A DNA stretch of 59,556 nucleotides, counting the filler. It is 4 parts of 4 records of this genome, joined end to end, with 100 filler letters (N's around TTAATTAATTAA, not from the genome) between each part and the next. Parts side by side here need not be neighbours in the genome. Positions count along the whole stretch, not along the records: positions 13,362 to 43,827 come from DRR723986_1445; 3 more parts are not named here. One strand, 5' to 3'. Position numbers and translations under genes: made by a program. Positions 3,395-36,204 of the stretch are shown piece after piece. Under the pieces are notes generated by a model. The model did no database searches and had not been told where the DNA came from. It saw only the letters and a list, made by a program, of their open reading frames with translations. Within the stretch, counting starts at the first letter, position 1. Every line of letters starts with the position of its first letter.

Positions 3395-3397
3395 ACC

Positions 3398-4891: not shown

Positions 4892-4978
4892 GAAAATTGA
4901 GGTCGCAGCGGTTGTCGGTGCGACCCGACAGTTTTTGAAACGCGGAAGATCCGCTCTATCCATGAAAGGACGTTCGTA

Positions 4979-5470: not shown

Positions 5471-5476
5471 GACAGA

Positions 5477-5499
5477 TCGCCGCGACGTAATCGCGGCGA
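5477..5499 (+). other. Perfect 9-bp stem-loop downstream of hcp (no U-tract)
   Basis: TCGCCGCGA-CGTAA-TCGCGGCGA. Confidence 0.5.
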
Positions 5500-5525
5500 G
5501 CCACCCTGCATTGCATTGACGGAGT

Positions 5526-6858: not shown

Positions 6859-6864
6859 CCGACT

Positions 6865-7767
6865 ATGGATAGCCGTCTGCTGAGACATTATGAAACCGAA
6901 CTGGCGTTTCTGCGGGAAATGGGCGCGGAATTTGCCGACGCCTACCCCAAGATCGCCTCGCGTTTGGGGATGGATGGCCTCGAAATTCTTGACCCCTATG
7001 TTGAGCGCCTTCTTGAGGGGACTGCGTTTCTCACGGCGCGGGTCCAACTTGAGTTGGAGATGCAATATCCAGCGTTCACCAGCCATCTGCTGGATGTGGT
7101 TTTCCCGCATTTTCTGGCGCCTACACCCTCAATGATGGTGGCCGAATTGCTGCCCGATCTGACCAATGCCGATCTGGCGCAGGGCTATGAGCTGCCCCGC
7201 GAGACCACGCTGCGCTCCAAGACCGTCAGCGGGGCGCAAAAGGCTTGCCAGTTCCGCACTGCACATGATCTGCATTTGTGGCCCATCATAGTGACGGAGG
7301 CCGAATATATCGATGGGCGCGGTGCGCTTGTCGCGGCCGGGGTAGCCCAAGACGCAGAGGCCCGTTCGGCGGTTCGGCTGCGTCTGACACGCCACGGCGA
7401 TCTACCGATCAAGGAACTGCCGGTTGATGATCTGACGTTCTTTTTGGGCGGGCAGTTGAGCACCGGTTGGTCCTTGTACGAGATGCTTTGCGCCAGCCCG
7501 GCCACGGTGGTTGCCAAATCGCCAAACCGGCGCGACAGCTGGACCGAGAAGTTGCAACATCCCGTTCGTCCGCGCGGACTGGACCGGGATGAGGCATTGC
7601 TGCCCACACCGCGCCCGTCCTTTGACGGCTACAGGCTGTTGCAGGAACATTTTGCGATGCCGGAGCGCAATCTATTTGTCGAGGTTTCGAGCCTGCAATC
7701 GGTGATTTCCCGTTGCGACGAAGACAGTCTGGATCTGTATTTTCTGATGCGGGAAAGCAAACCGGAG
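6865..7767 (+). CDS. tssF: T6SS baseplate TssF, truncated by contig end
   Basis: YETELAFLREMGAEFA..YPKIASRL, DPYVERLLEG, GYRLLQEHFAMPE. Confidence 0.93.
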
Positions 7768-7867
7768 NNNNNNNNNNNNNNNNNNNNNNNNNNNNNNNNN
7801 NNNNNNNNNNNTTAATTAATTAANNNNNNNNNNNNNNNNNNNNNNNNNNNNNNNNNNNNNNNNNNNN
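7768..7867. other. Artificial contig spacer
   Basis: N-run + TTAATTAATTAA (stops in all frames) + N-run, 100 nt. Confidence 0.98.
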
Positions 7868-20748: not shown

Positions 20749-20757
20749 GCGCGCCCC

Positions 20758-21963
20758 ATGCCCCAGTTCAGCTATAAGGCAGTCGGCCGGGACGGCAAGG
20801 GCCGCGAAGGCGTGATCGAGGCGGACGGCCTGGAACTGGCCCAGCGCCAGCTGCGGTCCCAGGGGCTGACCTTGCTCAAGCTGGAAGCCGGCGCCGGCAG
20901 CAAGCCCGGTGACCTGGCAGCCGGCAAGCCGCCCAGCCGCCAGGAAGTACTGTCCATGACCTCGGAGCTGGCGGTGCTATTGCGCGCCGGCCTGCCGCTG
21001 GACCGTGCCCTGAAAGTGCTGATCGACATGGCCGCCCAACCGCAGATGAACGCCCTGCTGGCGGATCTGCTGAAAGCAGTGAAAGGGGGCAAGGCCTTCA
21101 GCGCCGCCTTGCTGCCGCACGAGAAAATCTTCGGCAATTTTTACGTCAGCATGGTGCGCGCCGGGGAAGCCAGCGGCCAACTGTCAGCGGTGCTGGACCG
21201 GCTGGTCGAGTATCTCGAGAACGCGAAGGCGAATCGCGACACCGTGGTGTCGGCGCTGATTTACCCGGCCATCCTGCTGGTGGTCGCGGTGCTCTCGATC
21301 GTGGTCATGCTGGGCTTCGTGGTGCCGCAATTCGAAACGCTGTTCGAAGACATGGGCGAGGCCCTGCCCGGGATGACCCGTATGGTCATCGCTGCGGCGG
21401 ATTTCATTGCTGCCTGGGGCTGGTTGCTGGCTATCGTCCTCATCGGCGGTGGAATATACCTGCGCCGCTGGGCGTCAACCCCGGAAGGGCGTGCGACGCT
21501 GCATGCGCGCTTGTTGCGCCTGCCGATCGCCGGCGGGATCGTTTTCGAATTCGAGGTGTCCAAGTTCGCCCGTACGGTCGGTACCCTGCTGGGTAACGGG
21601 GTTTCCCTGCTGAAGGCGATCTCTATTGCGATCGATACGGTGGACAACACGGTTATCAAGGAGTCGCTGGAGGTGCTGCCGCCGGCGGTGAAGGCCGGCA
21701 AGCGTATGTCGGTGGCCCTGGAAGAAACGAAGATGTTTACCCCTATGGTCATCCAGATGACCCGGGTGGGCGAGGAATCCGGCAGCCTCGACAAGATGAT
21801 GCTGGAACTGGCCAAGGTGTTCGACGATCACGTGCAGTCAGGGGTCAAGCGCAGCCTGACGCTGCTGGAGCCGGTGCTGATACTCAGCATGGGCTTCATT
21901 ATCGCGGTGATCATTATCGCTATCCTGATGGGCATCCTGTCGGTCAACGACCTGGCCGTGTAA
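20758..21963 (+). CDS. gspF: T2SS inner-membrane platform protein
   Basis: LLRAGLPL, AGEASGQL, ALIYP, VGEESG.L, LLEP. Confidence 0.95.
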   Translation: MPQFSYKAVGRDGKGREGVIEADGLELAQRQLRSQGLTLLKLEAGAGSKPGDLAAGKPPSRQEVLSMTSELAVLLRAGLPLDRALKVLIDMAAQPQMNALLADLLKAVKGGKAFSAALLPHEKIFGNFYVSMVRAGEASGQLSAVLDRLVEYLENAKANRDTVVSALIYPAILLVVAVLSIVVMLGFVVPQFETLFEDMGEALPGMTRMVIAAADFIAAWGWLLAIVLIGGGIYLRRWASTPEGRATLHARLLRLPIAGGIVFEFEVSKFARTVGTLLGNGVSLLKAISIAIDTVDNTVIKESLEVLPPAVKAGKRMSVALEETKMFTPMVIQMTRVGEESGSLDKMMLELAKVFDDHVQSGVKRSLTLLEPVLILSMGFIIAVIIIAILMGILSVNDLAV

Positions 21964-21991
21964 GTACCTGAACGACTGAGAACTGGGAATT

Positions 21992-22435
21992 GTGACCATG
22001 CTGCAACACCGTACACGCCGAAACGAGCGCCGCCAGCGCGGCTTTACCCTGATGGAACTGCTGGTGGTGCTGGCCATCCTCGGTCTGCTGATGAGCCTGG
22101 TTGGGCCACAGGTGTTGAACCAGCTCGGTGGCGCCAAGACCAAGACCGCGGCCATCCAGATCAAGGACCTGGAACAGTCGCTGGAGATGTACAAGCTCGA
22201 CGTCGGCCGTTTCCCCTCCACCAATGAAGGTCTCAGTGCGCTGGTGGTCAAGCCTGCCGGCGCGGCGGGCTGGAACGGCCCCTACCTGAAGTCCGCCGTA
22301 CCCCTGGACCCCTGGAAACGTGAATACAACTACAAATACCCCGGTGAGCGCGGCGAGCTGGATATTTTCAGCTACGGCCAGAACGGCACCCCGGGCGGGG
22401 AGGGGGAAGATGCTGACGTGGGTAACTGGCAATAG
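21992..22435 (+). CDS. gspG: T2SS major pseudopilin
   Basis: RG|FTLMELLVV, YKLDVGRFPS..EGL.AL, WNGPYL, DPW, D.DVGNW. Confidence 0.96.
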   Translation: MTMLQHRTRRNERRQRGFTLMELLVVLAILGLLMSLVGPQVLNQLGGAKTKTAAIQIKDLEQSLEMYKLDVGRFPSTNEGLSALVVKPAGAAGWNGPYLKSAVPLDPWKREYNYKYPGERGELDIFSYGQNGTPGGEGEDADVGNWQ

Positions 22436-22470
22436 CCTGACGGCCCCCGGCACTCGCTGGTGAATTGCTG

Positions 22471-22950
22471 ATGACCGCGCTGCCCCGGCGCAATCGCGTC
22501 ACTGCTTCCCAGAATGCCGGCTTCACCCTGCTGGAACTGCTGGCGGCCCTCACCGTGGTGGGCCTGGTCCTCGCGGTTTCCATACCCTCTACGGTGCGTT
22601 TCTACGATTCCATCCAGTACCGGCAATCGATCCGCGATACCGTCACGGTGCTCGCCTCGGCGCGTCACGAGGCGGTGACCAGCGGTGTGGCCCAGGATGT
22701 ACTGATCAACCCGCGAGAGCGCTCGGTGCGCTACGGCGATACCGTTCATCAGTTGCCTGAGGTGGTAAACATCGCCGTGCATTCCGCACAGGAAGTTAAC
22801 CGGCAGGACGAGGGGGTTATTCGCTTCTACCCGGAAGGCGGCTCCAGTGGCGGTGGTGTCGACATCGAACGCCCCGGGGTTGGCGGCGTCAGCATCCAGG
22901 TCGACTGGCTGGTCGGACGAGTCACCCATGAGACCTTCGAGATCAACTAG
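22471..22950 (+). CDS. gspH: T2SS minor pseudopilin H
   Basis: G|FTLLELL, IRFYPEGGSSGG, VDWLVGRV. Confidence 0.88.
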   Translation: MTALPRRNRVTASQNAGFTLLELLAALTVVGLVLAVSIPSTVRFYDSIQYRQSIRDTVTVLASARHEAVTSGVAQDVLINPRERSVRYGDTVHQLPEVVNIAVHSAQEVNRQDEGVIRFYPEGGSSGGGVDIERPGVGGVSIQVDWLVGRVTHETFEIN

Positions 22951-23338
22951 GCGCGATACGCGCAGCCGGGCCGCGGGGTTTTCCCTGCTGGAGATGGTTG
23001 TCGCCATCGCGATTCTGTCGCTGGCGCTGGCCGCGCTCTACCAGGCCGCCAGCGGCGCGACGCGCAATGTCCGCACCGACGAGAAATACGCCTTCGGTGT
23101 GGAGCTGGCCCGCTCACTGCTGGCAGATAATGCCCGCGTCCCGCGCAACGGCATCAGCAGGCGAGGCGAAACCGACGGCGGCTTTATCTGGAGCGTGCAG
23201 ACCCGCCCGGTTCCGCTGCAGCGCGGCGGCCTGCCCCAGGGGAGCCTGCACTACATCGATATCGAAGTCGGCTGGACCGACGGCCGGCGCCCCGGGCGCT
23301 TCGTGCTGAGCTCGGTGGTTGAGGGGATCCGCAAATGA
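22928..23338 (+). CDS. gspI: T2SS minor pseudopilin I
   Basis: G|FSLLEMVVAIAI; position in cluster. Confidence 0.85.
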   Translation: MRPSRSTRRDTRSRAAGFSLLEMVVAIAILSLALAALYQAASGATRNVRTDEKYAFGVELARSLLADNARVPRNGISRRGETDGGFIWSVQTRPVPLQRGGLPQGSLHYIDIEVGWTDGRRPGRFVLSSVVEGIRK

Positions 23339-23964
23339 TCCTGCCTGCTACAGCCTTTGCTGCCCGACGCGGTTCTGCGGCAGCCGGTTTCACCCTGGTC
23401 GAGGTGATGGTCGCCCTGACCATCCTGTCGCTGGTGATGGTCGTCACCGTCACCGGCTTCCGCACCCTGGGCAATACCCAGGTCTCCATCGACCGCATGA
23501 CCGACCGTGTTGACGAGATTCGCAGTGTCAGTTCCTTCTTGCGGGATGCGTTTGAGGCCACCGTTGTTGGGGATGACAACGAGGGGCTGACCCTTGGCGG
23601 CGGAGGTGGCTCAAGCAGTGACGGGTTCTTCCGGATTGCCGAGCAGGGCGTGGAGTGGCGTTCCGCCCTGTTGTTTGGAGAGGCTTTCGGCGGCAGCTTT
23701 TATTTGCGCCTGGTGAAGCAGGATGACGCGCTGGTGCTGCAGTGGCAGGAGCCCCGCGGTCGGCGACCCAGCCCCTGGGCGGACAGTCAATCCCGAGTGG
23801 TGATCGACCAGGTGGAGGCGTTCACTGTAGCCTACAAACGCGAGCCTGGCGGTCCGTGGCAGGAACAGTGGGACCGCAGTATCTCAACGCCCTCGCTGAT
23901 CCGCCTCAGCATCAAGTCTTCCGGGCGCTACTGGCCGGACCTGATCATGGACATGGGCCGATGA
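23335..23964 (+). CDS. gspJ: T2SS minor pseudopilin J
   Basis: G|FTLVEVMVALTI; C-terminal W...W....P.LIRL...WP. Confidence 0.85.
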   Translation: MILPATAFAARRGSAAAGFTLVEVMVALTILSLVMVVTVTGFRTLGNTQVSIDRMTDRVDEIRSVSSFLRDAFEATVVGDDNEGLTLGGGGGSSSDGFFRIAEQGVEWRSALLFGEAFGGSFYLRLVKQDDALVLQWQEPRGRRPSPWADSQSRVVIDQVEAFTVAYKREPGGPWQEQWDRSISTPSLIRLSIKSSGRYWPDLIMDMGR

Positions 23965-24797
23965 AACCGACTGCAGGCTCATCAGAGCGCCGACGGTTCT
24001 CGCAGGGCGGTGTTGCCCTGGCTATCGTGGTCTGGTTTATCGCCGGGATGTCATTGCTGGTGGCGGGTATTGTGGCCCAGGCCCGGGTGGATACCCGACT
24101 GGCTCAGGTACATGCCGATCGCGCGCGCCTGGTGGCGGCAGGTGACGGCGCGATCAGGTTGTTCATCTCGGAGCTTGCCGTACTGTCGGAGCAGGGCGGC
24201 AGGTCCCAGGGCTTTAGCTTACCCACGTATCGGCTTGGCGAATTGAGCGTCAGCATTGAAGCGGTACCGGTCGCAGCGCTGATAGACCTCAACGCCGCCC
24301 AGCTGCCGCTGTTGCGGGAATTGTTTGTCGCAGCCGGCGGCCTGTCGCAGGCGCAGGCCAACGAGATGGCCCAGGCGATTGTGCGGTGGCGCAGCCCCGG
24401 GCAGCGCCGCGGAAGTGGCAAGCGCTTCGACTCGGTGGAAGATATCATGCGGGTCCCCGGCATGAGGCGACAGCTGTATGACAATATTCGGGATCATGTC
24501 GCTGCTGGTGCCGGCGTTGGCGGTGCTCTCATGTATGAGCTCGCTGACCCGGTCATCAGGCAAGCCGCGCGCCGAGCCGGAATAGCGCCCGGTCAGGGGG
24601 CGGCGCCTGCTGATCGACGTGGGATTTTTGCCTCTGGCCGCGCCTTGCGCGTGGATGCGATAATCACGACCGGAAACCGGCGCTGGACGCGAAGGCAATG
24701 GCTGACGCCCGGCGCCAGCGCAAATTCGAGTCTGCCCTGGGGGGCGGTAAAGATCGAGGCCCCGCGGGTACTCAGGCCGATTACGCAGACAGGATGA
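23961..24797 (+). CDS. gspK: T2SS minor pseudopilin K
   Basis: G|VALAIVVW (no Glu5), IDLNAA, F.SVED..RVPGM. Confidence 0.85.
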   Translation: MKPTAGSSERRRFSQGGVALAIVVWFIAGMSLLVAGIVAQARVDTRLAQVHADRARLVAAGDGAIRLFISELAVLSEQGGRSQGFSLPTYRLGELSVSIEAVPVAALIDLNAAQLPLLRELFVAAGGLSQAQANEMAQAIVRWRSPGQRRGSGKRFDSVEDIMRVPGMRRQLYDNIRDHVAAGAGVGGALMYELADPVIRQAARRAGIAPGQGAAPADRRGIFASGRALRVDAIITTGNRRWTRRQWLTPGASANSSLPWGAVKIEAPRVLRPITQTG

Positions 24798-24806
24798 GGA
24801 CAGTGA

Positions 24807-25823
24807 ATGTCGCAAAGTAGCGACAATTGGATGTTGTTCGGATATGACGTTCGGGATTTTGGCCGCCTGTGGCGGGTAGCCTGGACGGATTTCCTGTGGG
24901 CGGACGATTCACCGGTGAAGAACCAGCTGGACGATATCGTCAGCGTGCAGGAGGGTGCCGAATCAGGGGCCTATCAGGCCGGACGCAAGGTTGCGCATGA
25001 TCCCGTGTCCCTGCGCGCGGTTGCCCTGCCCGAAGACCTGGTACTGGTGCGTCGCTTATCCCTGCCGGCGGCAGCGCTTCCCAACCTTGAGTCAGTCGCG
25101 GGTCTCGAGGTCGGAGCCAGCAGTCCGTTTTCCGCGGATGACACGACGTCCGGCTGGGTTCTCCTGCCAGGGCACCTGGATAAGCTTGACCTGAGGATTG
25201 TGATCGCCTCGCGCAGCGCGGTGATGTCCCATCTGTCGCGCGAGCACGATGTTCACGAGCCTGCGGAGCGGGAAGTCTGGGCGAGAGTGGATGAGCAGTG
25301 GGTTGTATTGAAAGGCTTCGGGGAAGGCCAGCGGCGGGCCAGTTACCGGCAGCGTCTGCAGCGGGTTGGTTTTATGATTGCTGCGGCGGCAGCCCTGTTG
25401 CTGCTGATTGTGGCAGCGAACGTAGGCTTCAAGCAGCTCGAGCTGAACCAGCTGGAAAACCTGGCGGCCTACACCCAGCGCGAAGCGGCAACCGCCATGG
25501 AGCTGCGTGGCCAGTTGACCGACATAAATGAAACCATCTCGGAAGTGAACCGGCTGGTGGCGGCTTACCCAAGCCCCCATGTGGAGTTGGCGCGCCTGAC
25601 CCAGCTGCTTGGCGATGACGCGTTTATCCAGCAGTTCCAGATGAACGGGCGGGAGATTCGCTTGCGTGGCCAGGCGGCAGATGCCGCTGGCGTGATGCAG
25701 TTGCTGACCGAACAGGACGCCTACAGCTCGGTGACAGCGCCGCAGGCGATTACCAAGATTTCCAGTTCCACCAAGGAGCAGTTCTACCTGAACATCACGC
25801 TCGCTGCGGAGAACGCGGGATGA
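24807..25823 (+). CDS. gspL: T2SS GspL (PilN-like periplasmic domain)
   Basis: LVRRLSLPAAA..NL, SPF, one TM segment, then LRGQAADA; position in cluster. Confidence 0.8.
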   Translation: MSQSSDNWMLFGYDVRDFGRLWRVAWTDFLWADDSPVKNQLDDIVSVQEGAESGAYQAGRKVAHDPVSLRAVALPEDLVLVRRLSLPAAALPNLESVAGLEVGASSPFSADDTTSGWVLLPGHLDKLDLRIVIASRSAVMSHLSREHDVHEPAEREVWARVDEQWVVLKGFGEGQRRASYRQRLQRVGFMIAAAAALLLLIVAANVGFKQLELNQLENLAAYTQREAATAMELRGQLTDINETISEVNRLVAAYPSPHVELARLTQLLGDDAFIQQFQMNGREIRLRGQAADAAGVMQLLTEQDAYSSVTAPQAITKISSSTKEQFYLNITLAAENAG

Positions 25824-26386
25824 ACTGGCTGAAAACGCACCGGCAAACCGCATGGATAGTCGGTTTAAGTTTGCTTATCCCGGTTGTTCTGTACCTTTAC
25901 CTGCTGGGGAACCTGCTGGCAGTCCGCTCGGACATCCAGGGGGAAATCGACCGGCTGTCGCCACGGGTGGCGAGAATGCAGGGCTTGCGCGATGCACAGG
26001 CTGACATGGAAGCTGCGCTGGCCGACGGTGGTCGCGAGAACGCGGGGATGGTTTACCCGTCGACCCAGGATGAGGCGGCGGTGTCTGCTGCGCTGCAGGC
26101 AGAAGTCCGTCGTCTGCTGGGCGATGCCGGGATGTCGATCAGTAACAGCCAGGTGCTGCCCGCTGAGGAGCTGGCCAGTTTTGATCGTATCGGCATCAAT
26201 GTGACGGCAACCGGTGATGTCGCATCCCTTGATGCTGCGCTGGAAAGCCTTGCCATCTACCGGCCGATGCTGCTGGTGGAATCGCTGGACGTGTATCCCA
26301 ACAGGAGTCGCAGTCGGGGTGATGGGCAAGCCCCTCAGACCATTACCGCGCGCTTACAGATCATGTCACTCAGGTCCGCCTCGTGA
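25820..26386 (+). CDS. gspM: T2SS GspM
   Basis: N-terminal TM segment, A.AALQ..VR, P.LLVESL; position in cluster. Confidence 0.8.
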   Translation: MNWLKTHRQTAWIVGLSLLIPVVLYLYLLGNLLAVRSDIQGEIDRLSPRVARMQGLRDAQADMEAALADGGRENAGMVYPSTQDEAAVSAALQAEVRRLLGDAGMSISNSQVLPAEELASFDRIGINVTATGDVASLDAALESLAIYRPMLLVESLDVYPNRSRSRGDGQAPQTITARLQIMSLRSAS

Positions 26387-27030
26387 ATATTGTTGAGTGG
26401 GCAAAAGCCCGCTACGGCCTGCGCACCAACCCGCTAATGGCGGAGCGGCGCGTCGAGCTGCTTGTGCTGGTGTTGGCTCTGTTGTTAGTGCTCCATGTCG
26501 TGCTGGGCCTGGTGTTTGCTCTCCTGCGCGCAGGTCCCGAGCGCGTGTTGCCGGCGGCGGATTCACTCAGGGTATCGCAGCTGCAGTTGTTTGATCCGCT
26601 GACGGAGGACCAGTCAGCGGGCATCGTGTCACGCCCCCTGTTCTGGGAATCACGCCAGCCGCTTCAAGGCGTCGCTGTCGTCGCACCGGCAAAGGACGAC
26701 AAGCCGAAGGCTGTAGGTGAATTGAAAGGTGTTAAGCTGGTCGGGATTTTCGGCGGTGGCAGCGAGGGCGGTGCCATCGTGATGGTCAAGGGTAACAAGC
26801 AGCGTGTACTGGTCGGTGCGGACTTGGAAGGCTGGCGGCTGGAGTCTATTGCATCGGACCGGGCAGTGTTTGTCAGTGGGGCTGCCAGAGATGAAAAACT
26901 GCTGGCCACGGCGACACCGGAGCAACTCGCGCCAGCGCCGCAACCGGCCGCCGGCGCAAAGCGTGCGAAACCAGAACCGGCCCTGCCATCCGGGGAATTG
27001 ACCCTGGGAGGCATGGTGTCCGGAAAATGA
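26383..27030 (+). CDS. XpsN-like / GspC-equivalent T2SS protein
   Basis: TM segment, RPLFWESRQP, LVGIF..G..G.AI, G..LEGWRL.SI; lies between gspM and gspD as xpsN does. Confidence 0.7.
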   Translation: MNIVEWAKARYGLRTNPLMAERRVELLVLVLALLLVLHVVLGLVFALLRAGPERVLPAADSLRVSQLQLFDPLTEDQSAGIVSRPLFWESRQPLQGVAVVAPAKDDKPKAVGELKGVKLVGIFGGGSEGGAIVMVKGNKQRVLVGADLEGWRLESIASDRAVFVSGAARDEKLLATATPEQLAPAPQPAAGAKRAKPEPALPSGELTLGGMVSGK

Positions 27031-27052
27031 TAAGAACAGGGGATAGAACCAA

Positions 27053-29269
27053 ATGAATTTGCACAGCAAGCGTTTGCTGACGGTGATTCTTCTGGCCGGC
27101 ATCAGTACGGTGATGCTCGGGTGTGCGGCGCTGGACCAGCGCGGGTCGGACGCTGAAGCTCAATCTTCTTCCGGAGCCACTGAATCCAAATCCCAGGTCG
27201 ACGCCGAGGCGCCGCTGGCAACCAATGCCGCGCAACTGGCCCGGGACGAGGAGCTGGTCAGCACGGATCCCATTATCTACCGTGGCGATGACCGGCCGGT
27301 GAAAATGCCGGCAAAAGAAGCGCCAGTGCGCTTCGTCGGCGAAGACGTCAGCCTCAATTTCGAAGCCGCTCCCCTGTCAGAAGTGGTGCACGCGGTGATC
27401 GGCGATATCCTCGGACTCGACTATGTGGTGGATGGGCCGATCAATGGCCAGGTGACCTTGCGCACCCGCACGCCTATTCCCCGGGACCAGTTGCTGGTCG
27501 TGCTCGAGTCCCTGTTGAAAGCAAACAACACCCTGATGATTCGCGGTGAGGAAGGCCGTTACCTGGTGACCGCCTCGAACCAGGCGACCCGTCTGTACCC
27601 GGGTCTGGACAGCCCCTACGACACGGCGGCCGGTTACAGTACGATTATCATTCCCCTGCAATACATCAGTGCCAGCGGCATGGCCGAAATTCTCAAGCCG
27701 CTGGCAGAAGAGAATGCCTTTGTCAGGGTAGATAACTCGCGCAATATCCTGATGCTGGCCGGCACCCGCACCCAGTTGGGCGGTTGGCTGGAAATCATAG
27801 AAACCTTCGATGTCGACCGGCTCAAGGGTATGTCCGTGGGCCTGTTCCCGCTGGAGAACAGCGGCGTGGAGGAAACTGCCAGCGCGCTGTCAGCCCTGCT
27901 GGGCGCAGACGGCGCGGGAGGAGGCACGTCTGGCGGCGGCGACCTCGGCCAGCTGGTTCGGGTCATTCCCTTCAAGCGCCTGAACAGCATTCTTATTGTT
28001 ACGCCGCGGGCGCACTACCTGGATATCGTGGGAACCTGGATAGAACGCCTGGACACCGCCCAGACCGGGCCGGGCGAGAAACGCCTGTTCGTCTACCCGG
28101 TGCAGAACACCACCGCCAGCCGCCTGGCGCAGTTACTCAACAGTATTTATTCCGGTGGGGGTGCGGCAGGTGGTGACATCGCAGCCGGGACCGCGGGAGC
28201 CCAGACTACCCGTGGCGTGGCACCGGGTCTTACGCCTGAAACCATTGGTAGCACCACCGGCGGCAGCATGTCCGCTACGGGCGGCCCGAGCAATTTCGGC
28301 AGCAGTGGCTCAGACAGTGCGCCGATCTCCGCGCTGACCATGGCGGGGAACAGCAGCAATTCCATGGTGGAAGACGTGCGGGTGGTGGCTGACGACGAGA
28401 ACAATGCGCTGATGATTTATGCCACCGGTGTCCAGTACAAACTGATTACAGCGGCGCTGGAGAAGCTGGATATCGCGGCGACCCAGATCATGATCGAGGC
28501 GAGTATCGTCGAAGTAACGCTCACCGACGAACTGCGCTACGGCCTGGAGTGGACTTTCAAGGGCGGCCTGGGCAGCAACTACGACGGCGTGGGTGTGCTC
28601 GCTGACGCAGCCAGCGGTCCAGCGGCGCTGGCCCCCGGCTTTTCCTATGCTGTTACCAACTCGATTGGCGACATCAGCGCGGTGTTGAACGCCCTGTCCC
28701 AGGAGTCGCTGGTCAACATCATCTCCACCCCGTCGGTCATGGTGCTGGACAACCACACCGCCTATATCCAGGTAGGTGAGCAGATACCGGTCAGGCGCGG
28801 CACCACCGTCACCGATGGCGGTACCACCACGGAGAACATCGAATACCGCGATACGGGTGTTCTGTTGAATGTGCGCCCCTCGGTTAATGCCGGTGGCCTG
28901 GTGACCATGGATATCGAGCAGTCGGTAACCGATGTAGGCCAGCTGGACGTGGGCGGCAACCGTCGCTTCCTCGAGCGCAAGATCCAGAGCCGGGTGGCGG
29001 TGCGCTCCACGGAATCGGTGGTACTTGGTGGGCTGATCAGGGAAAATGCGTCCAACAGCGATGACGGGGTCCCGTTCCTGCACAAGGTGCCGGTTGTCGG
29101 TAGCCTCTTTGGCACGACTGAAAAGACCAACAACCGCACGGAGCTGATCGTCATTATCACGCCGCGGGCCCTGTATAATGAAACCGAGCTTCGTGAAGTC
29201 AGTGACGAGATGCGCTCCAAGATCCGCAACCTGGACCTGATCAACCCGAAAGACTCGATCTGGAACTGA
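27053..29269 (+). CDS. gspD: T2SS secretin with lipoprotein signal peptide
   Basis: VSLNFE.APL, QIMIEASIVEVTL, PSVMVLDN..A.IQVG.QIP, GVPFLHKVP..G.LF, RTELIVIITP; lipobox MLGC. Confidence 0.95.
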   Translation: MNLHSKRLLTVILLAGISTVMLGCAALDQRGSDAEAQSSSGATESKSQVDAEAPLATNAAQLARDEELVSTDPIIYRGDDRPVKMPAKEAPVRFVGEDVSLNFEAAPLSEVVHAVIGDILGLDYVVDGPINGQVTLRTRTPIPRDQLLVVLESLLKANNTLMIRGEEGRYLVTASNQATRLYPGLDSPYDTAAGYSTIIIPLQYISASGMAEILKPLAEENAFVRVDNSRNILMLAGTRTQLGGWLEIIETFDVDRLKGMSVGLFPLENSGVEETASALSALLGADGAGGGTSGGGDLGQLVRVIPFKRLNSILIVTPRAHYLDIVGTWIERLDTAQTGPGEKRLFVYPVQNTTASRLAQLLNSIYSGGGAAGGDIAAGTAGAQTTRGVAPGLTPETIGSTTGGSMSATGGPSNFGSSGSDSAPISALTMAGNSSNSMVEDVRVVADDENNALMIYATGVQYKLITAALEKLDIAATQIMIEASIVEVTLTDELRYGLEWTFKGGLGSNYDGVGVLADAASGPAALAPGFSYAVTNSIGDISAVLNALSQESLVNIISTPSVMVLDNHTAYIQVGEQIPVRRGTTVTDGGTTTENIEYRDTGVLLNVRPSVNAGGLVTMDIEQSVTDVGQLDVGGNRRFLERKIQSRVAVRSTESVVLGGLIRENASNSDDGVPFLHKVPVVGSLFGTTEKTNNRTELIVIITPRALYNETELREVSDEMRSKIRNLDLINPKDSIWN

Positions 29270-29530: not shown

Positions 29531-29974
29531 ATGTTAGGTAGGATTTTGTCAATCTCCCGCTCGCTTACCGCAATTGCCCTGATAGGTCTGTTGGGTGCGT
29601 GTGCAGCGTTCAATAGCCTGTCGCCGGCGAGCGAAAAACTGCTAAAGGAACGGGTCGCTGAGCGCTCAAACCTGGTCTTCGAAGGGCGCTACGACGAGGC
29701 CTGGGAGTACTCTACACCTAATTATCGAAGTGTTTTCTCTAAGCAGTTGTTTGCAAAGCAATTCTCTACAAACCTCGAGCGGCGGTTGACAGGGGTCGAC
29801 ATCCTTGAATATGATGCCCGGGCAGCTGTGGCGAGTGTGGCGGTGAGGGTCATGTCCAAACCGACCAAACAAACGTCTTCAGCATCGGCGGCCCTGGGGG
29901 CTTTACCCGGGTCCATTAATGAGAAGTGGATTCTGATTGATGGGCAGTGGTGGTATAGCGTCAAGGGTCAGTAA
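29531..29974 (+). CDS. Lipoprotein of unknown function (possibly NTF2-like fold)
   Basis: Lipobox LLGAC; AWEYSTPNYR and C-terminal EKWILIDGQWW; AAGGA RBS. Confidence 0.75.
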   Translation: MLGRILSISRSLTAIALIGLLGACAAFNSLSPASEKLLKERVAERSNLVFEGRYDEAWEYSTPNYRSVFSKQLFAKQFSTNLERRLTGVDILEYDARAAVASVAVRVMSKPTKQTSSASAALGALPGSINEKWILIDGQWWYSVKGQ

Positions 29975-29990: not shown

Positions 29991-30030
29991 TTGACAGCGA
30001 GCTGCAGCTAGCAATAATAGCGCTAGCAAT
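29991..30030 (+). promoter_or_regulatory. Putative sigma70 promoter of the 518-aa gene, with a GCTAGCAAT direct repeat
   Basis: TTGACA (29991-29996), 16 nt, AATAAT (30013-30018); GCTAGCAAT at 30007 and 30022; TAGGAG RBS at 30061. Confidence 0.5.
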
Positions 30031-30075
30031 CTGTACCTTTTGATTGTGAAAAATAGACATTAGGAGTCTCCTCTT

Positions 30076-31632
30076 ATGAAAGCTAACTTTAAGCCTCTTG
30101 GCCTTGCCGCAGCTGTTGCTGCTGTTTCGGCCGGATACGCTGGTAGCACCATGGGTCTGCCGACTGCCACCAACACTGGTGACATCGCGATCGTTCCTTA
30201 CTACACGGTAGAGAACGGCTTCAACTCAGGTGTTCACATTATCAACACTACTGCCGCTACCCAGGTCGTAAAGCTGCGCCTGCGTCGTGGTAGTGATTCC
30301 CAGGATTCTCTGGACTTCAACATCGTGCTGTCACCGCAGGACGAGTGGGTAGGTTCGATCCAGCGTAATGACGATGATCAGATCTTCATCCAAACCGCTG
30401 ACACCTCCTGTACTGCACCCGCGTCCAATGGCGGCAAGTTCTTCATGCCGGACACTGGTTCTGACACCACGGTTGTAAACTTCCGTGAAGGTGCTGACGA
30501 GGGTTACATCGAAGTGATTGGTATGGCCCAGACTTCGGACGAAGCCCAGCCCATCGCTGTTTCTGCCAAGCACTCTGCTGGCGTACCTAAGGATTGTGCG
30601 GACGTACGCAAGAACTTCTTCCGCGTAACCACCCCAGGCGTTGTTTCTGCCAACGGTGTACACGGCCCTGACCTGACGTCCAACGGTACGGCAGTAAGCT
30701 TTTACGTCGATACCCCGGACAATGCGCTGTCGGTCAGCTACTTCTCGCGTGACTCCGATGGTGGTCTGGAATTCGGCGGTAATGCCGTGCACCTGAACGG
30801 TTTCGGCACTGGCCCGATGATGACCAACCAGGAAGTGATCGTGGCTGGTTCTTCAGATCCGCTGGGCTACCTGTTCCCTGACTTGGACGGTGCTCCGCTG
30901 GCACCTAACGTCGGTGCAACAATAGACCCCAATGCGCCTGCTACCCAGGCTACTCGTGGTCGTTTTGATGCAGTTGTGCGTCCGGCTCTCGGTGTCGCTG
31001 GCCTGCTTAACGACTGGTCAACCAACACGTCTGCGGACTTTGAAGTGACCACTGACTGGGTAGTTACTCTGCCTGGCCAGTACCTGATGCTGGATCCGAC
31101 GGCTTACATCACATCACTGTTGGACCCGACTGCACCGTGTGCGGTGAATGACTGTGACCGTCGCGACCTGCCGGTTAGCCTGAGCATCACCTACTACGAC
31201 CGCGAAGAAGGCCGCTTCACCCCCGAAGGTGGCGATCTGGTAGTCTCTCCGGCGATCAACGTTGCGCCTTCTGGTGCGGTCCTCAACAATGAGGTTAACG
31301 TGATCGAGTGGTCAAATGGCTCCAATGATCCGGTACTGGGCAGCAGCTACGCGGTTAGCTTCACCCCGACTGGCCTGACTTCTCAGGTTGGCTGGGCTGA
31401 TCTTACTGTAGCCGCTTCAAGTGCCAAGCAGCAGTCTGTGTACGATTACGTACCGGGCGCGGCGTCCGCTGATCCGGCTTGTGTGGCCTCTGTTGTAGGT
31501 GACCCGAACGCTTGGTGTGACGTGCAAAACACTGCTGTGCCGATCATCGGCTTCGCAGCCTGGCAGCGTAACTTCGGTGACAATGCTGCTGCCAACTACG
31601 GCCGGGCGATTGATCACGCCTACCGTTCGTAA
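30076..31632 (+). CDS. Secreted cell-surface protein, candidate S-layer subunit
   Basis: Sec signal peptide; rich in A/G/S/T/V/D/N, acidic, six Cys; motifs PYYTV, LDFNIVLSPQDEW, EGYIEVI, TDWVVTLP, YDREE, IGFA; codon usage (GGT/GCT/ACT/CGT/TCT) typical of high expression. Confidence 0.7.
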   Translation: MKANFKPLGLAAAVAAVSAGYAGSTMGLPTATNTGDIAIVPYYTVENGFNSGVHIINTTAATQVVKLRLRRGSDSQDSLDFNIVLSPQDEWVGSIQRNDDDQIFIQTADTSCTAPASNGGKFFMPDTGSDTTVVNFREGADEGYIEVIGMAQTSDEAQPIAVSAKHSAGVPKDCADVRKNFFRVTTPGVVSANGVHGPDLTSNGTAVSFYVDTPDNALSVSYFSRDSDGGLEFGGNAVHLNGFGTGPMMTNQEVIVAGSSDPLGYLFPDLDGAPLAPNVGATIDPNAPATQATRGRFDAVVRPALGVAGLLNDWSTNTSADFEVTTDWVVTLPGQYLMLDPTAYITSLLDPTAPCAVNDCDRRDLPVSLSITYYDREEGRFTPEGGDLVVSPAINVAPSGAVLNNEVNVIEWSNGSNDPVLGSSYAVSFTPTGLTSQVGWADLTVAASSAKQQSVYDYVPGAASADPACVASVVGDPNAWCDVQNTAVPIIGFAAWQRNFGDNAAANYGRAIDHAYRS

Positions 31633-31666
31633 GATCAGCTAGTCTGATCTGAGACGTAGTACTAGG

Positions 31667-31699
31667 AAAACCGACGCTCTAGGGCGTCGGTTTTTTTTT
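31667..31699 (+). terminator. Strong intrinsic terminator
   Basis: AAAACCGACGCT-CTAG-GGCGTCGG followed by a T9 run; a second hairpin AGATCAG-CTAGT-CTGATCT at 31632-31650. Confidence 0.9.
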
Positions 31700-31721
31700 G
31701 CTCATGGAGAACCGATAAACA

Positions 31722-32639
31722 ATGAAATACAGCCTCATGCTCCTTGCAACCCTCGCCCTGCTGGCGTCCCAGGTTTCATACTCCGATGCACCTGTAATCG
31801 AGGATGGTGATATCTCCATGTCGCGGGCGGAACTGGAATTTATAATCAAGAATTGGCCGGGCCAGATGCGCCGTGGTGCTGCCAATGACCTTGGACAGCG
31901 TTACGAAGCGCTGAATAAGGCGATGGCCAGTAAGCGCATCGCAAGAGAGGGTGAATTTCTGGAGTTGGATCCTTCCTCTGACGAATACTGGCGCCGAGAG
32001 ATTCTGCTAAGGAGAACTTTGCACACCTTTGTTGTGCAGCGATTCCTGGGCTCTATCGACGTACCTGATATGCGTCCCCTCGCGCGTGAGCGGTATGACA
32101 CCCAGAGGGAGAAGTATGCCTTTGTCCCGGAGAAGCGCCTGTCCTCGCATATCCTACTCGTCTGCGTTGCGGGCAGATGTGATGAAAAGGCGCGCAAGAG
32201 TGAAGCGGAAGTAATACGCGCTCGCCTGCTAGAAGGCGAAAACTTTGCGGATCTGGCCTCTCGACTCTCCGAGGATAGTGGCACCAAGCTTAATGGTGGC
32301 AAGTTCGATACTCTGATTGCGGCTGATGATTCGGCTATCGACAGGGCCTATCGGGAAGCGGTTTTTGCGCTTGAGAAAGTGGGTGACTTTTCGCCTGTCA
32401 TAAAGAGCCGCTTTGGTTATCACGTCGTGAAGCTCGATGAGATTCAACCGAGTTACCACAAGACTTTTGACGAGGTACAAGGTCAGATCATTGCTGACCT
32501 GGCGACTGAGTACCGTGACCTCCAGATTGAGCTGTTCGATGACCAGTACCGGTTCTCCGATGAACTGAAAATGGATGGGGCTGTGCTGGAGGAAATCTTT
32601 GCGCCCTATAAGTCGGGTGCTGCAGCGCCAGCACAATAA
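31722..32639 (+). CDS. Exported PpiC/parvulin-type peptidyl-prolyl isomerase
   Basis: Signal peptide; SHILL, F.DLA..LSED.GT..NGG, SPVIKSRFGYHVVKL. Confidence 0.85.
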   Translation: MKYSLMLLATLALLASQVSYSDAPVIEDGDISMSRAELEFIIKNWPGQMRRGAANDLGQRYEALNKAMASKRIAREGEFLELDPSSDEYWRREILLRRTLHTFVVQRFLGSIDVPDMRPLARERYDTQREKYAFVPEKRLSSHILLVCVAGRCDEKARKSEAEVIRARLLEGENFADLASRLSEDSGTKLNGGKFDTLIAADDSAIDRAYREAVFALEKVGDFSPVIKSRFGYHVVKLDEIQPSYHKTFDEVQGQIIADLATEYRDLQIELFDDQYRFSDELKMDGAVLEEIFAPYKSGAAAPAQ

Positions 32640-32712: not shown

Positions 32713-35700
32713 ATGTCCACTAAGCCCAACCTCGTGATTCTCGGCATGCATCGCTCCGGTACCTCGATGGTTGCCGGCGCGCTGGTGCGTGCCGGGCTTT
32801 ACCCAGGAAATGCTGACGAACTGCTGGTCGACCAGGAGGACAATCCGCACGGATTCTGGGAGCGAAGGGATGTTGTTGCACTGAACGATGAGATCCTGGC
32901 TTCGGCGGGCGGCGTCTGGTTTGATCCGCCTTCACTCGCACTGGACGTTGATGTGCCGAGGTTGCCGATCGAGGAGATCGTGGCGCGCCTGGGAAGTAGC
33001 CCCTGGTTAATCAAGGATCCTCGCATGGTAATCACCTGGCCCTGCTGGCGTGAACGCCTGGGCGAGGTTGTTGTGCTCTATGTGTACCGAAACCCGGCGG
33101 CCGTGGCGTTATCGTTGCAGCGGAGGAATCAATTTCCGCTAAGCCTTGGCCTGGCGCTCTGGGAGTACTACAACAGGGCGGCTATTGAAGCATTGGCGCA
33201 GCAAGATTCCGTGGCAGTCTCTTTCGATGCAATCTCCGCCGAGCCAGTTCAGGCGATCGAGTCACTGCTTGAACGCCTGGCGGCTCTTGGTCTCGGCGTG
33301 ACGTCAGGAGACCTCAATGGTGTTTATGATAAACAACTGTCCCAGTCATGGCGTGAGCACGCCCAGGACGTCGAACAGTTGATGACGGCGGATCAGTGCG
33401 CGCTGGCTGATTATTGTGAAGCCATGTGCGCTGGCAAGCCGCTGCCGAAGCTGCCACCGGCTGACCGCTTCCTCCAGCAGCGTATTCACGATCTGGCGAC
33501 TGCGCTTGAGCCCCTGTCTGACGCGCGGGAAACACGAACACGACTGGAAGAGCGGACAGACGAGCGCGATGCCTTGCTTGCCCAGCTGAAGTCGGTTGAG
33601 GCAGAGTACAGCGCGCTGCACAAGGCTCACGAGCAGGAGAAAGCGCGTCACGCAGAACTCGCTCGCACCCGCGACCAGTTGGAGAGCGAGCATCTGGCGC
33701 TGGCCGAGGCGCACCGCAGTGAAGTCAGTCGTCATGAGCAACTGGTGACCGAGCATAATCGTCTGGGTGAGGAGTACCGTGCGCTACTTGAGAAAGCCGA
33801 GTTCCTGTTTGAACTGGTAACTCGAACCTTCCACAACCTGCTTGCCTACGAGACGTCCTTCCTCGGCTCTCTCGGCCGCTGGACCCGCCTTGGCTATCGC
33901 TTTGTTACATTCCAGCGCGGGAAAAGCACCAGCTACGAGGATGCCCTGGCCGAGGCACGGCATCACTTTGCCGAGTTTGAAATGGACGTTCCGAAACGTC
34001 CCCCGGGTAAGCTCGCCCTGGCCGGGGATGTGTTCCGCTATGTAGTGGATAACCCGGCGGGTTCCGCGAGAAGCTTCAGCCTGGCGCGACTGAAGCGCGC
34101 CTCCTCGGTTTTCCTGACCTCCAGGCCGGAAGACCTCAAGGTTTGGATCGACAGCCGATTTCCCGACCGGGAGGACGCTGGTCTTGCGTTTGATGCCGGG
34201 TCACTTGACGATGCGTTGGACCATCTCGAGCTCACTTTCCCGGTATTCGATTCGCCGCGGGTGAGCATTATCGTGCCGGTCTATAACGAATACCGGGTGA
34301 CGATTTCTTGCCTGGCCAAACTGTTGGAGCACACATCGGACATCCCCTACGAGGTGATCATTGCCGACGACTGTTCCTCTGACCTGACCGATAGCATCAG
34401 CGACAGGGTCAGGAATGTCCGGGTTGTGCGCGGTGAGCAGAACCGGGGTTTCCTGCGCAACTGTAACGCCGCCGCAGCACAAGCCAGCGGCGAGCATGTG
34501 CTTCTACTCAACAATGACACCGCGCCCTGCGAGGGGTGGTTGGCACCAATGCTCGCCATTATGGATGAGCGCCCCACAGCCGGCATTGTCGGGCCCAAGC
34601 TGTTGTTTGCCGACGGCCGTTTGCAGGAGGCAGGGGGCATTATGTGGCGCGACGGCTCGGCCTGGAACTTTGGTCGTGCCGATGATCCGGAGAAACCTGA
34701 GTATAACTACCTTAAGTCGGTGGACTACATCTCCGGTGCGTGTCTGCTGATCCGGAAAACCCTGTGGGATGACATTGGCGGCTTCGATGAACGCTATGTG
34801 CCCGCCTATTACGAGGACGCGGATATCGCCTTCGAGGCCAGGTCCCGGGGTTACGAGGTGATCTACCAGCCCCTGTCCCGGGTATTCCATTTCGAGGGTC
34901 TTAGCAACGGCACCGACCTTGAGGCCGGTATCAAGCAGCACCAGGTAAGCAACCAGACGGTCTTTCGCGACAAGTGGCAGCAGACCCTGGATGCCTTCCA
35001 TTTCCCCAACGCCGAAAACGTATTCCAGGCCAGGGATCGCTCACGCAATCAGCGCAGCATCCTGTTTATCGACCATTACGTGCCGCACCACGACAAGGAT
35101 GCCGGCTCGCGTTCTACCCTGCATTACGTGAAGCTGATGCTCGCCATGGGTTACAAAGTATTGTTCATGGGCGCCAATTTCTTTCCCCACAAACCGTACA
35201 CCGAGCAGCTGCAGCAGTTGGGGGTGGAAGTACTGGTGGGGGAGTATATGGCGCGCAATCTCGACAAGTGGCTGGGCGAGAACGCCCCCTATATCGATAC
35301 GATCTACCTGCACCGGCCCCATGTGGCCGAGCAGTTCCTGGCCAGCCTGCACCGGATGAAGCCGCGGCCGAAGATTATTTTCTTTGGCCACGATCTGCAT
35401 TACCTGCGGGTGGCACGGGAAGCTGAGTTGTTGGGTGATGCGACGCTGGAAAAGACCTCCGAGTCCTGGCGTAAGCGTGAATATGCGGTGTTTGATAAGG
35501 TCGACACGGTGTATTACCCGTCCCAGGTGGAAGTTGATGCGATCAATGCCAGTCGCGCAGATCTCGATGTCAGGGCCATTCCACTGTACACGCTGGATAT
35601 CGGCGAACTCCCACCCTATGAGCACGAGGGCCGTGCGGATATATTATTTGTCGGTGGCTTCAACCACCCGCCAAACGTCGACGCGGTGTGCTGGTTTGTC

Positions 35701-36204
35701 GATCAGGTTTTGCCGCTGGTACGGGCCGGCCAGCCAGAGGTGCGATTGCATGTGGTCGGCTCTAATCCCACCGATGCGGTGCAGGAATTGCAGAGTGATG
35801 CGGTGCAGGTCTACGGCTACCTGAGCGATGCCGAGCTGGAGGCGATGTATCGTCGGATCATGGTGGCGGTGGTTCCGCTGCGCTACGGGGCCGGGGTAAA
35901 GGGTAAGGTGATTGAGGCGATCCAGATGAATGTGCCGTTGGTTACTACCGCGGTCGGTGCCGAGGGGATACCCGAAGCCGAGCGGGTAATGAGTGTCGCA
36001 GATACCGCTGAAGAACTGGCCCAGTCGATCAGCCGGGTTGTCACCGGCGATCCCGCAAGCCTGGCAAAGCTCGCCAACTATCGGAACTGGCTGGAAGACC
36101 ATTTCAGTACGTCAAAAGCCAGCCAGATAGTGGTAGAAGACTTTGGGCCACCCCGCCGTGAAGTTGCGATACCGGTTCCTGAGAGCATGGGAGCAATATC
36201 TTGA
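32713..36204 (+). CDS. Multidomain protein: sulfotransferase-like, coiled coil, GT2, GT4
   Basis: LGMHRSGTS/DNPHGFWE/KDPR/YRNP; heptad-rich segment; VSIIVPVYN, DDCSSD, LLNND, VDYISGAC, YYEDAD; DKDAGS, FVGGFNHPPNVDA, PLRYGAGVKGKVIEA. Confidence 0.85.
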   Translation: MSTKPNLVILGMHRSGTSMVAGALVRAGLYPGNADELLVDQEDNPHGFWERRDVVALNDEILASAGGVWFDPPSLALDVDVPRLPIEEIVARLGSSPWLIKDPRMVITWPCWRERLGEVVVLYVYRNPAAVALSLQRRNQFPLSLGLALWEYYNRAAIEALAQQDSVAVSFDAISAEPVQAIESLLERLAALGLGVTSGDLNGVYDKQLSQSWREHAQDVEQLMTADQCALADYCEAMCAGKPLPKLPPADRFLQQRIHDLATALEPLSDARETRTRLEERTDERDALLAQLKSVEAEYSALHKAHEQEKARHAELARTRDQLESEHLALAEAHRSEVSRHEQLVTEHNRLGEEYRALLEKAEFLFELVTRTFHNLLAYETSFLGSLGRWTRLGYRFVTFQRGKSTSYEDALAEARHHFAEFEMDVPKRPPGKLALAGDVFRYVVDNPAGSARSFSLARLKRASSVFLTSRPEDLKVWIDSRFPDREDAGLAFDAGSLDDALDHLELTFPVFDSPRVSIIVPVYNEYRVTISCLAKLLEHTSDIPYEVIIADDCSSDLTDSISDRVRNVRVVRGEQNRGFLRNCNAAAAQASGEHVLLLNNDTAPCEGWLAPMLAIMDERPTAGIVGPKLLFADGRLQEAGGIMWRDGSAWNFGRADDPEKPEYNYLKSVDYISGACLLIRKTLWDDIGGFDERYVPAYYEDADIAFEARSRGYEVIYQPLSRVFHFEGLSNGTDLEAGIKQHQVSNQTVFRDKWQQTLDAFHFPNAENVFQARDRSRNQRSILFIDHYVPHHDKDAGSRSTLHYVKLMLAMGYKVLFMGANFFPHKPYTEQLQQLGVEVLVGEYMARNLDKWLGENAPYIDTIYLHRPHVAEQFLASLHRMKPRPKIIFFGHDLHYLRVAREAELLGDATLEKTSESWRKREYAVFDKVDTVYYPSQVEVDAINASRADLDVRAIPLYTLDIGELPPYEHEGRADILFVGGFNHPPNVDAVCWFVDQVLPLVRAGQPEVRLHVVGSNPTDAVQELQSDAVQVYGYLSDAELEAMYRRIMVAVVPLRYGAGVKGKVIEAIQMNVPLVTTAVGAEGIPEAERVMSVADTAEELAQSISRVVTGDPASLAKLANYRNWLEDHFSTSKASQIVVEDFGPPRREVAIPVPESMGAIS

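Follow-up and report, generated by a model that had tools for sequence, protein, structure and literature searches.

NpdA (nanopod protein A) was identified by Gajbhiye et al. in 2023 as the surface-layer (S-layer) protein of Paracidovorax citrulli, based on gene deletion, proteomics and cryo-electron microscopy (cryo-EM) (PMC10765051). Orthologs of npdA, defined by BLASTP with WP_011797163, were reported in 62 betaproteobacterial and 49 gammaproteobacterial species, with a conserved 12-gene gsp cluster upstream of npdA (PMC10765051). Among these holders are Congregibacter litoralis, Haliea salexigens, Halioglobus, Luminiphilus, Parahaliea mediterranea and Pseudohaliea rubra (PMC10765051). Of 16 further cultures examined by cryo-EM, all but one showed an NpdA-like layer; C. 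litoralis KT71 and H. salexigens DSM 19537 were among those imaged, and the species named as exceptions are others (PMC10765051). Two type II secretion systems (T2SSs), gsp1 and gsp2, are present in P. citrulli, and the same is cited for Aeromonas (PMC10765051). In both P. citrulli and Delftia, NpdA makes up the outermost, paracrystalline layer. In Delftia Cs1-4, NpdA was established by immunogold labelling, mutagenesis and mass spectrometry; it forms oligomers of more than 150 kDa that are stable in sodium dodecyl sulfate (SDS) and a tetragonal lattice, with lipopolysaccharide-dependent assembly (PMC3110197). The protein is also called glycosylated, and orthologs in marine Gammaproteobacteria are mentioned (PMC3958437). 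Here we describe a gene for a 518-aa protein of the NpdA family at positions 30076..31632 of a 59,556-nt stretch of DNA (the window) from a marine Halieaceae (OM60/NOR5 group) gammaproteobacterium. All coordinates count along the whole window, and the open reading frame (ORF), its promoter and its neighbours all lie on the plus strand.

From the letters of the DNA, an earlier note had taken this product for a structural surface protein and had mentioned a link to the Delftia S-layer protein NpdA as possible but unverified. The link is real. The window protein can be aligned along its whole length with its NpdA-type counterparts from Delftia, Acidovorax and Paracidovorax. BLASTP against a Delftia acidovorans NBRC 14950 protein gave an E-value of 3e-27 with 30% identity over 350 columns, and against Delftia tsuruhatensis an E-value of 8e-22, where the segments around the DREE motif and at the C-terminus are collinear. 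When the Halieaceae alignment A1 was compared with the Comamonadaceae alignment A4 by hhalign, the two matched with a probability of 100% and an E-value of 1.3e-39 over 464 columns, which covers both proteins from end to end. The N-terminus MKANFKPLGLAAAVAAVSAGYAGS... of the window protein aligns with the Delftia signal peptide. The features that mark NpdA, namely full-length similarity, a signal peptide of about 25 residues, a size of about 52 kDa, the absence of any known domain and a gsp cluster upstream on the same strand, are all found in the window gene, and Halieaceae genera are among the published holders of npdA (PMC10765051). With the full-length homology and the shared gene order described below, the structural surface protein reading is supported, and we put the probability that the gene encodes an NpdA-type surface-layer protein of a Halieaceae gammaproteobacterium at roughly 85%.

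Relatives were collected in four scans of contigs. The first found 137 relatives in 147 stretches, from which 79 Halieaceae-type loci were kept. The second and third found 558 relatives in 623 stretches and 567 in 611, respectively; they took some contigs twice, and the counts given here are counts of loci, not of distinct genomes. Comamonadaceae were absent from the best 80 relatives of scans 2 and 3, and a homologue search seeded with a single relative (L152) returned Casimicrobiaceae-like proteins only and no Comamonadaceae. They were recovered by the fourth scan (44 relatives in 68 stretches), which was seeded from L240, a weaker match found in a sample from the order of Thauera. Its relatives came from Delftia tsuruhatensis, D. 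acidovorans NBRC 14950, Acidovorax delafieldii, Paracidovorax anthurii, P. konjaci, P. valerianellae, Simplicispira, Diaphorobacter and others, all of the named genera, as well as A. delafieldii and the three Paracidovorax species, also standing in the tables of PMC10765051. Further organisms matching Tables 2 and 3 of that paper are Haliea salexigens DSM 19537, Parahaliea mediterranea, Pseudohaliea rubra, Luminiphilus and Congregibacter, together with Thauera butanivorans, Nitrotoga, Dokdonella, Neptunomonas and Pseudoteredinibacter. In five of five genomes of species or genera in those tables the family profile had a single match per genome, and in the Halieaceae among them it is the gene that follows the gsp cluster. 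A family match was present in 15 of the 301 genomes of the Thauera-order sample.

Copy number and taxonomic label vary in places. Candidatus Nitrotoga sp. 1052 carries two npdA copies on one contig, and several genomes of the 301-genome sample (G153, G193, G235, G049 and G053) have two to four family matches, which are paralogues. A Halieaceae-type locus occurs in a metagenome-assembled genome (MAG) labelled Cryomorphaceae (L007), and an NpdA fragment on a 414-nt contig labelled Microbacterium (L283); both assignments are probably binning or contamination artefacts.

The gene order is conserved as well. Based on tblastn with the window proteins, the 79 Halieaceae-type loci contain the gene of a small lipoprotein in 78 cases, gspD in 74, a peptidyl-prolyl isomerase (PPIase) gene in 69, gspH to gspM in 66 and a glycosyltransferase fusion gene in 64; these counts are lower bounds, as many loci end at contig ends. 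Among 36 Comamonadaceae-type loci with at least 8 kb upstream, gspD and gspF were found together in 34 and the lipoprotein in 28, and a PPIase gene lies no more than 4 kb downstream of npdA in 38/40. No gene like the 1163-aa glycosyltransferase fusion was found downstream on the same strand in any of those 40 loci. In the remaining beta- and gammaproteobacterial loci the figures are 85/112 for gspD, 32/112 for the lipoprotein and 84/111 for the PPIase. The order T2SS, lipoprotein, npdA, PPIase is thus common to Halieaceae and Comamonadaceae. Outside the npdA cluster, another full-length gspG was found in each of five Halieaceae genomes, and therefore the npdA-linked T2SS is an additional system. 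Two loci depart from the pattern: in a Halioglobus MAG (L017) no gsp cluster was found within 10 kb upstream of the homologue, and in Cocleimonas flava (L043) the lipoprotein, npdA and PPIase genes are present but no gsp matches were found upstream. The Cocleimonas flava lipoprotein counterpart has no lipobox Cys.

The protein itself fits the description given in the earlier note, that of an acidic product rich in small residues, with six Cys and without a C-terminal aromatic signal. Its signal peptide spans residues 1 to about 24 or 27, the mature mass is 51.6-51.9 kDa, the pI is 4.2, Gly, Ala, Ser, Thr and Val make up 46% of the residues, and the chain ends in ...DHAYRS with no terminal aromatic residue. 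The six Cys are at 112, 174, 355, 360, 469 and 481, and the C112/C174 pair is conserved family-wide. The motifs named in the earlier note (PYYT, DFN..SP.D, D..C..P, EGY.E.I, TDWV.T.P, DREE and the G near IGFA) correspond to columns that vary little or not at all in the family alignments. A search with the 518-aa protein scored 8000 candidates, of which 947 had an E-value of at most 1e-3. The best 120 homologues are all unnamed or "hypothetical", those with organism names being Halieaceae, and the nearest database protein, derived from a metagenome, is 80% identical. An exhaustive search of cluster representatives returned 2111 at E ≤ 1e-3, 1001 at E ≤ 1e-10 and 115 at E ≤ 1e-30. Pfam and NCBIfam contain no family that matches the protein. 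A sequence search of PDB with the single protein gave one irrelevant match (E 1.5), and with profile A2 gave none. An S-layer protein of the RTX type, exported by a type I secretion system as in RsaA, would have a C-terminal secretion signal with RTX calcium-binding repeats and would adjoin ABC transporter, MFP and OMP genes; the N-terminal signal peptide, the T2SS neighbours and the lack of any Pfam repeat family do not fit this type.

What fold, then, does the protein adopt? The AlphaFold2 (AF2) model, built with 55 homologues, has a mean predicted local distance difference test (pLDDT) score of 83.5 and a predicted template modelling (pTM) score of 0.87. It is mostly beta, with disorder over residues 1-29 that agrees with a signal peptide there. 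Foldseek with the full model returned no PDB match at E ≤ 1e-3, with galectins at E of about 5e-3. The N-terminal domain (residues ~31-242) is predicted to be a beta-sandwich, for which VIA-align gave TM1070 (1nc7_A) as the best match with a Z of 11.4, a root-mean-square deviation of 3.1 and 107 aligned residues, followed by the Anabaena sensory rhodopsin transducer (ASRT) at Z 7.2 and galectins at Z 6-7, a range the tool calls common. In addition, the N-terminal two thirds of NpdA (residues ~25-360) recur as a module in giant proteins of 1083-3213 aa (P0155, P0164, P0167, P0189 and P0195), next to dockerin, GH123, GEVED, PATR, FGE-sulfatase or fn3 domains. The fold is therefore used as part of large surface proteins too.

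The TM1070-like and, more weakly, galectin-like sandwich and the modules in giant dockerin, GH123, fn3 and FGE-sulfatase proteins would also suit a different function, in which the NpdA homologue is a secreted or surface carbohydrate-binding protein or adhesin that leaves the cell as T2SS cargo and builds no closed paracrystalline layer. That S-layer identity in Halieaceae rests on imaging and gene presence, not on genetics, in PMC10765051 speaks for it as well. However, the Z 6-7 matches fall within the common range, the protein shares full-length homology and the same cassette with species in which NpdA was shown to be the S-layer protein, and neither Halieaceae culture is among the cryo-EM exceptions named in PMC10765051. 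Extreme codon bias and a strong promoter are also what a bulk structural protein would have. We consider the carbohydrate-binding function unlikely and the S-layer protein the better reading.

The abrupt switch in codon usage reported in the earlier note is borne out. In seven four-fold boxes (Gly, Ala, Thr, Arg-CGN, Ser-TCN, Val and Pro), the fraction of T-ending codons is 0.401 in npdA as compared with 0.130 ± 0.054 in 53 other window genes, a difference of about 5 standard deviations. The G+C content at third codon positions (GC3) is 0.60 for npdA; the mean over the window is 0.71, and gspE has 0.85. GGG is used for none of 48 Gly and AGA, AGG or CGA for none of 18 Arg, whereas TAC accounts for 16/16 Tyr codons and CAC for 5/5 His codons; GGG, AGA, AGG, CGA, TAT and CAT are all unused, and the effective number of codons is 37.5. 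When the plus-strand ORFs of each locus that do not overlap and reach 120 aa, possibly not all of them genes, are ranked by T-ending fraction, npdA comes first in 67 of 72 Halieaceae-type and 29 of 41 Comamonadaceae-type loci. The codon adaptation index (CAI) was computed with the str/S10/spc ribosomal genes (plus elongation factors) of two Parahaliea genomes, 27 and 24 genes, as references, which belong to other genera than the host. These ribosomal genes are shifted in the same way, with GGT at 0.41-0.49, CGT at 0.35-0.43 and GTA and GTT raised, and less so for GCT, ACT and TCT. The Parahaliea npdA orthologs have CAI values of 0.679 (1st of 18 locus ORFs) and 0.625 (4th of 21). The codon shift is real and recurs in orthologs, which fits selection for expression.

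Several points weigh against the reading as an NpdA-type S-layer protein. The authors of PMC10765051 themselves hold that S-layer protein identity beyond P. citrulli and Delftia needs genetics and biochemistry. Our comparison used species-level relatives of the characterised Delftia Cs1-4 DelCs14_5206 and P. citrulli WP_011797163, and the identity is 27-30%. That the Halieaceae orthologs of PMC10765051 correspond gene by gene to the family of the window gene is inferred. No NpdA structure was among the PDB matches, and the fold searches gave generic beta-sandwiches only. GC3 is low in the flanking genes too (0.61 for the lipoprotein, 0.58 for the PPIase), and therefore part of the composition shift is regional. 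Finally, the CAI of the window npdA is 0.619 with one Parahaliea reference, which ranks 3rd of 54 window genes with a z of 1.73, and with the other reference the z is 0.99 and npdA falls outside the top 8. Of the codon argument made in the earlier note, the switch itself has held, and the CAI against ribosomal genes came out as moderately high only.

Three adjacent genes of low GC3 (0.61, 0.60 and 0.58 against the window mean of 0.71), together with an only moderate CAI with heterologous references, could instead mean that the codon shift is a mark of foreign origin, that is, of a horizontally acquired cassette of lower G+C content, and not of selection for expression. Against this, the bias is limited to T-ending codons together with GTA. 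Codons ending in A show no enrichment (GGA 0.02, ACA 0.05 and CCA 0.03), rare codons are avoided, and the neighbouring lipoprotein gene has a T-ending fraction of only 0.19. The same bias is seen across genera in the orthologs ranked above, in the same direction as the ribosomal genes of relatives, and the cassette is syntenic across the family, which argues against a recent insertion. A foreign origin of the codon shift is thus quite improbable. A function as a porin of the outer membrane or as an exported enzyme is less probable still, indeed barely credible: the protein is beta-rich with a signal peptide and carries no family annotation that would exclude such a function a priori, but it is homologous to NpdA, its C-terminus ...AYRS has no aromatic residue, the predicted model does not resemble a porin barrel, and no porin or enzyme fold was among the matches listed by Foldseek or VIA-align, a statement that covers the families listed only. 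An NpdA-type S-layer protein therefore remains our preferred reading.

The signals around the gene were also found as the earlier note had reported them. The perfect -35 hexamer TTGACA is at 29991-29996; after a spacer of 16 nt comes the -10 hexamer AATAAT at 30013-30018, and 11 of 12 positions match the consensus. A promoter scan taken alone was not significant, with 5 sites in 3.6 kb as compared with 1.8 ± 1.3 in shuffles. The site is considered real because it is conserved across Halieaceae loci. In 35 of 39 sequences (the window plus 38 Halieaceae loci), TTGACA-16-AATAAT is found 80-107 nt upstream of the start; two of the remaining four have a weaker -10 and two have none. Conservation extends to the spacer and to the bases that follow the -10. 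The whole block spans 29991..30028, and 24 aligned Halieaceae upstream regions share 41 invariant columns, the proteins they belong to being ~40-53% identical. A degenerate 38-nt pattern made from the block occurs once each in 43 of the 79 Halieaceae-type loci, always upstream of npdA, and in 0/206 other loci; in the window it occurs once, as compared with 0 expected. At 30009-30028, GCTAGC palindromes flank the -10 in the arrangement GCTAGC AATAAT AGC GCTAGC, which suggests an operator. That a block of about 38 nt stays near-invariant while the protein has diverged to 40% identity may point to a conserved regulator acting over the -10 at the GCTAGC dyads, and we regard the block as a putative operator for such a regulator.

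The Shine-Dalgarno sequence TAGGAG (30061..30066) is 9 nt from the ATG and invariant in the 24 aligned upstream regions. For the 5' leader (30025-30090), the predicted fold is no more stable than that of shuffled sequences (z -0.13, 75/200 as good). Behind the gene, an intrinsic terminator is predicted at 31664..31699, where a G+C-rich hairpin (31664-31697) overlaps a T9 run (31691-31699). The region 31633-31705 folds at -28.9 kcal/mol with a z of -3.97, and 0/200 shuffles folded as well. A consensus terminator scan listed no terminator in the npdA 3' region. The codon bias, the conserved consensus-like promoter and the terminator, all read from the DNA, together suggest that npdA would be very highly expressed.

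Three further genes accompany npdA in the window. Directly upstream is the lipoprotein gene (29531..29974), whose 147-aa product has a signal peptide ending in LGAC. No Pfam or NCBIfam family matches this protein, and 22 members of its family have only weak matches to NTF2-like DUF families, DUF4864 being found in 7/22 with a best E-value of 5.4e-4. The lipobox Cys is present in 21 of 22 rows of alignment A5. The AF2 model has a pLDDT of 89.2, and Foldseek returned the N-terminal domain of PBP2a/PBP5, YchJ, the CaMKII hub and bile-acid dehydratase at E-values of 3.5e-4 and weaker, all of which are NTF2-like folds. In the 301-genome sample the lipoprotein occurs in 16 genomes, namely 14 of the 15 NpdA-positive genomes and 2 of the 286 others, the latter being weak or isolated matches. 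All 14 lipoproteins in NpdA-positive genomes are encoded directly upstream of npdA on the same strand. In one of these 14 genomes npdA is a pseudogene, broken into pieces with in-frame TGA stops (G103:C13:27609-28841), and the lipoprotein gene is kept. Complex prediction with mature NpdA and mature lipoprotein, alignments unused, gave scores of 0.00, 0.76 and 0.00. The lipoprotein is a family-wide companion of npdA and probably acts in export or anchoring; it could be an anchor of the layer, an adaptor that brings cargo to the secretin, or a helper of the secretin.

Downstream of the terminator lies the gene of a PpiC/PrsA/SurA-type PPIase (31722..32639, 305 aa) with an N-terminal signal-like segment, which matches Pfam Rotamase_3 (E 1e-17) and NCBIfam PPIase models. 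The exported PpiC/PrsA/SurA-like enzyme is likely the periplasmic foldase of the module, acting on a T2SS substrate that must fold before export. The next gene (32713..36204) encodes a 1163-aa fusion in which a weak sulfotransferase-like N-terminus (E 0.0024) and a coiled-coil stretch precede glycosyltransferase domains of the GT2 and GT1 types, as detected by Pfam and NCBIfam. It is a candidate for the synthesis of an S-layer or anchor glycan; glycosyltransferase genes lie downstream of npdA in the window.

The npdA-linked T2SS cluster, recognized by Pfam matches, extends over 18991..29269. It begins with gspE (18991-20748), followed by gspF (20758-21963), gspG (21992-22435), gspH-, I-, J- and K-like genes (22465-24797), a gspL-like gene (24807-25823), gspM (25820-26386), a conserved ORF without a Pfam match (26383-27030) and the secretin gene gspD (27053-29269). 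The N-terminus of GspD (27053-27130) is a signal peptide ending in the lipobox-like MLGC, and GspD may therefore be a liposecretin, for which this motif makes it a candidate. Elsewhere in the window, at 1768-7815, part of a type VI secretion system is encoded by tssA, tssB, tssC, hcp, impE and tssE, followed by a 316-aa TssF ORF that matches only positions 1-298 of the 608 profile positions. Unrelated molybdopterin genes follow on the opposite strand, and the cluster therefore looks truncated or rearranged.

Taken together, these elements suggest how the layer would be made. The npdA gene would be transcribed alone from a strong, lineage-conserved sigma-70-type promoter, with transcription ended by its own terminator. 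The pre-protein would cross the inner membrane through Sec by means of its N-terminal signal peptide and fold in the periplasm, where the conserved C112/C174 pair lies in the folding protein and the co-encoded PpiC/PrsA-like isomerase would be a likely helper. The adjacent second T2SS would then push NpdA through the outer membrane, and the protein would assemble on the lipopolysaccharide surface as a paracrystalline coat. For the organism of the window, high expression, secretion by the npdA-linked T2SS and lattice formation are what the locus and its relatives lead us to expect.

The gene itself adds little scientific news, since the family, the linkage to a T2SS and the occurrence in Halieaceae have all been published (PMC10765051), and the window gene is a further member. 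Three elements go beyond the papers' main text: the adjacent NTF2-like lipoprotein, the downstream foldase and the Halieaceae promoter block of ~38 nt. The words lipoprotein, pilotin, isomerase and chaperone do not occur in the main text of PMC10765051, nor are isomerase and gsp mentioned in PMC3958437. With these additions the npdA locus can tentatively be viewed, at somewhat under even odds, as a self-contained S-layer biogenesis cassette with an obligatory NTF2-like outer-membrane lipoprotein, a PrsA/SurA-like foldase and, in Halieaceae, a promoter-operator block. The tightly linked lipoprotein, together with the foldase and the invariant promoter block, gives concrete starting points for work on how an S-layer exported by a T2SS is built and controlled. 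Bacteria of the Halieaceae (OM60/NOR5) are abundant in coastal marine waters, and their cell coat governs encounters with phages, predators, particles and light. In databases npdA is labelled "hypothetical" throughout and has no Pfam or NCBIfam model. As its relatives number in the thousands (the 2111 cluster representatives), a family model would fix the annotation of a very common and probably very abundant envelope protein.

How does the locus compare with the systems already described? The S-layer proteins VapA and AhsA of Aeromonas work alike, with a second T2SS cluster next to their gene that is regarded as dedicated to their export (PMC10765051). They are treated here as analogues of the window NpdA and not as relatives. 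TM1070 (1nc7) and ASRT (2ii7) share a fold likeness with one domain only, at 15% and 5% identity, respectively, and a fold shared with the NpdA N-terminal domain implies no shared function. The NpdA proteins of Delftia acidovorans Cs1-4 and P. citrulli AAC00-1 share with the window protein full-length homology, a signal peptide of about 25 residues and the lack of any database domain. The mature sizes are alike, 52,394 Da for Delftia/P. citrulli NpdA, as given in the paper, and 51.6-51.9 kDa for the window protein. In both systems a T2SS lies directly upstream on the same strand, followed by a small lipoprotein, npdA and a PPIase, and both the Comamonadaceae npdA and the window gene have strongly biased codons. 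The differences are that the identity between the Halieaceae and the Delftia/P. citrulli proteins is only 27-30%, and that the Halieaceae proteins have extra conserved Cys, with C355 and C360 invariant in A1. The promoter block (0/206 other loci) is specific to Halieaceae, the same-strand GT2/GT1 fusion follows npdA in the Halieaceae-type loci only, and the host of the window gene is marine. The lattice, the SDS-stable oligomers, glycosylation and nanopods come from the NpdA literature. Also close are the npdA genes of H. salexigens DSM 19537 and C. litoralis KT71, which belong to another genus or species of the same bacterial family. The window protein is 43% identical to the H. salexigens gene product (L028) and 39-41% to those of Congregibacter MAGs (L042 and L045), and these genes and the window gene have the same locus layout and the same promoter block.

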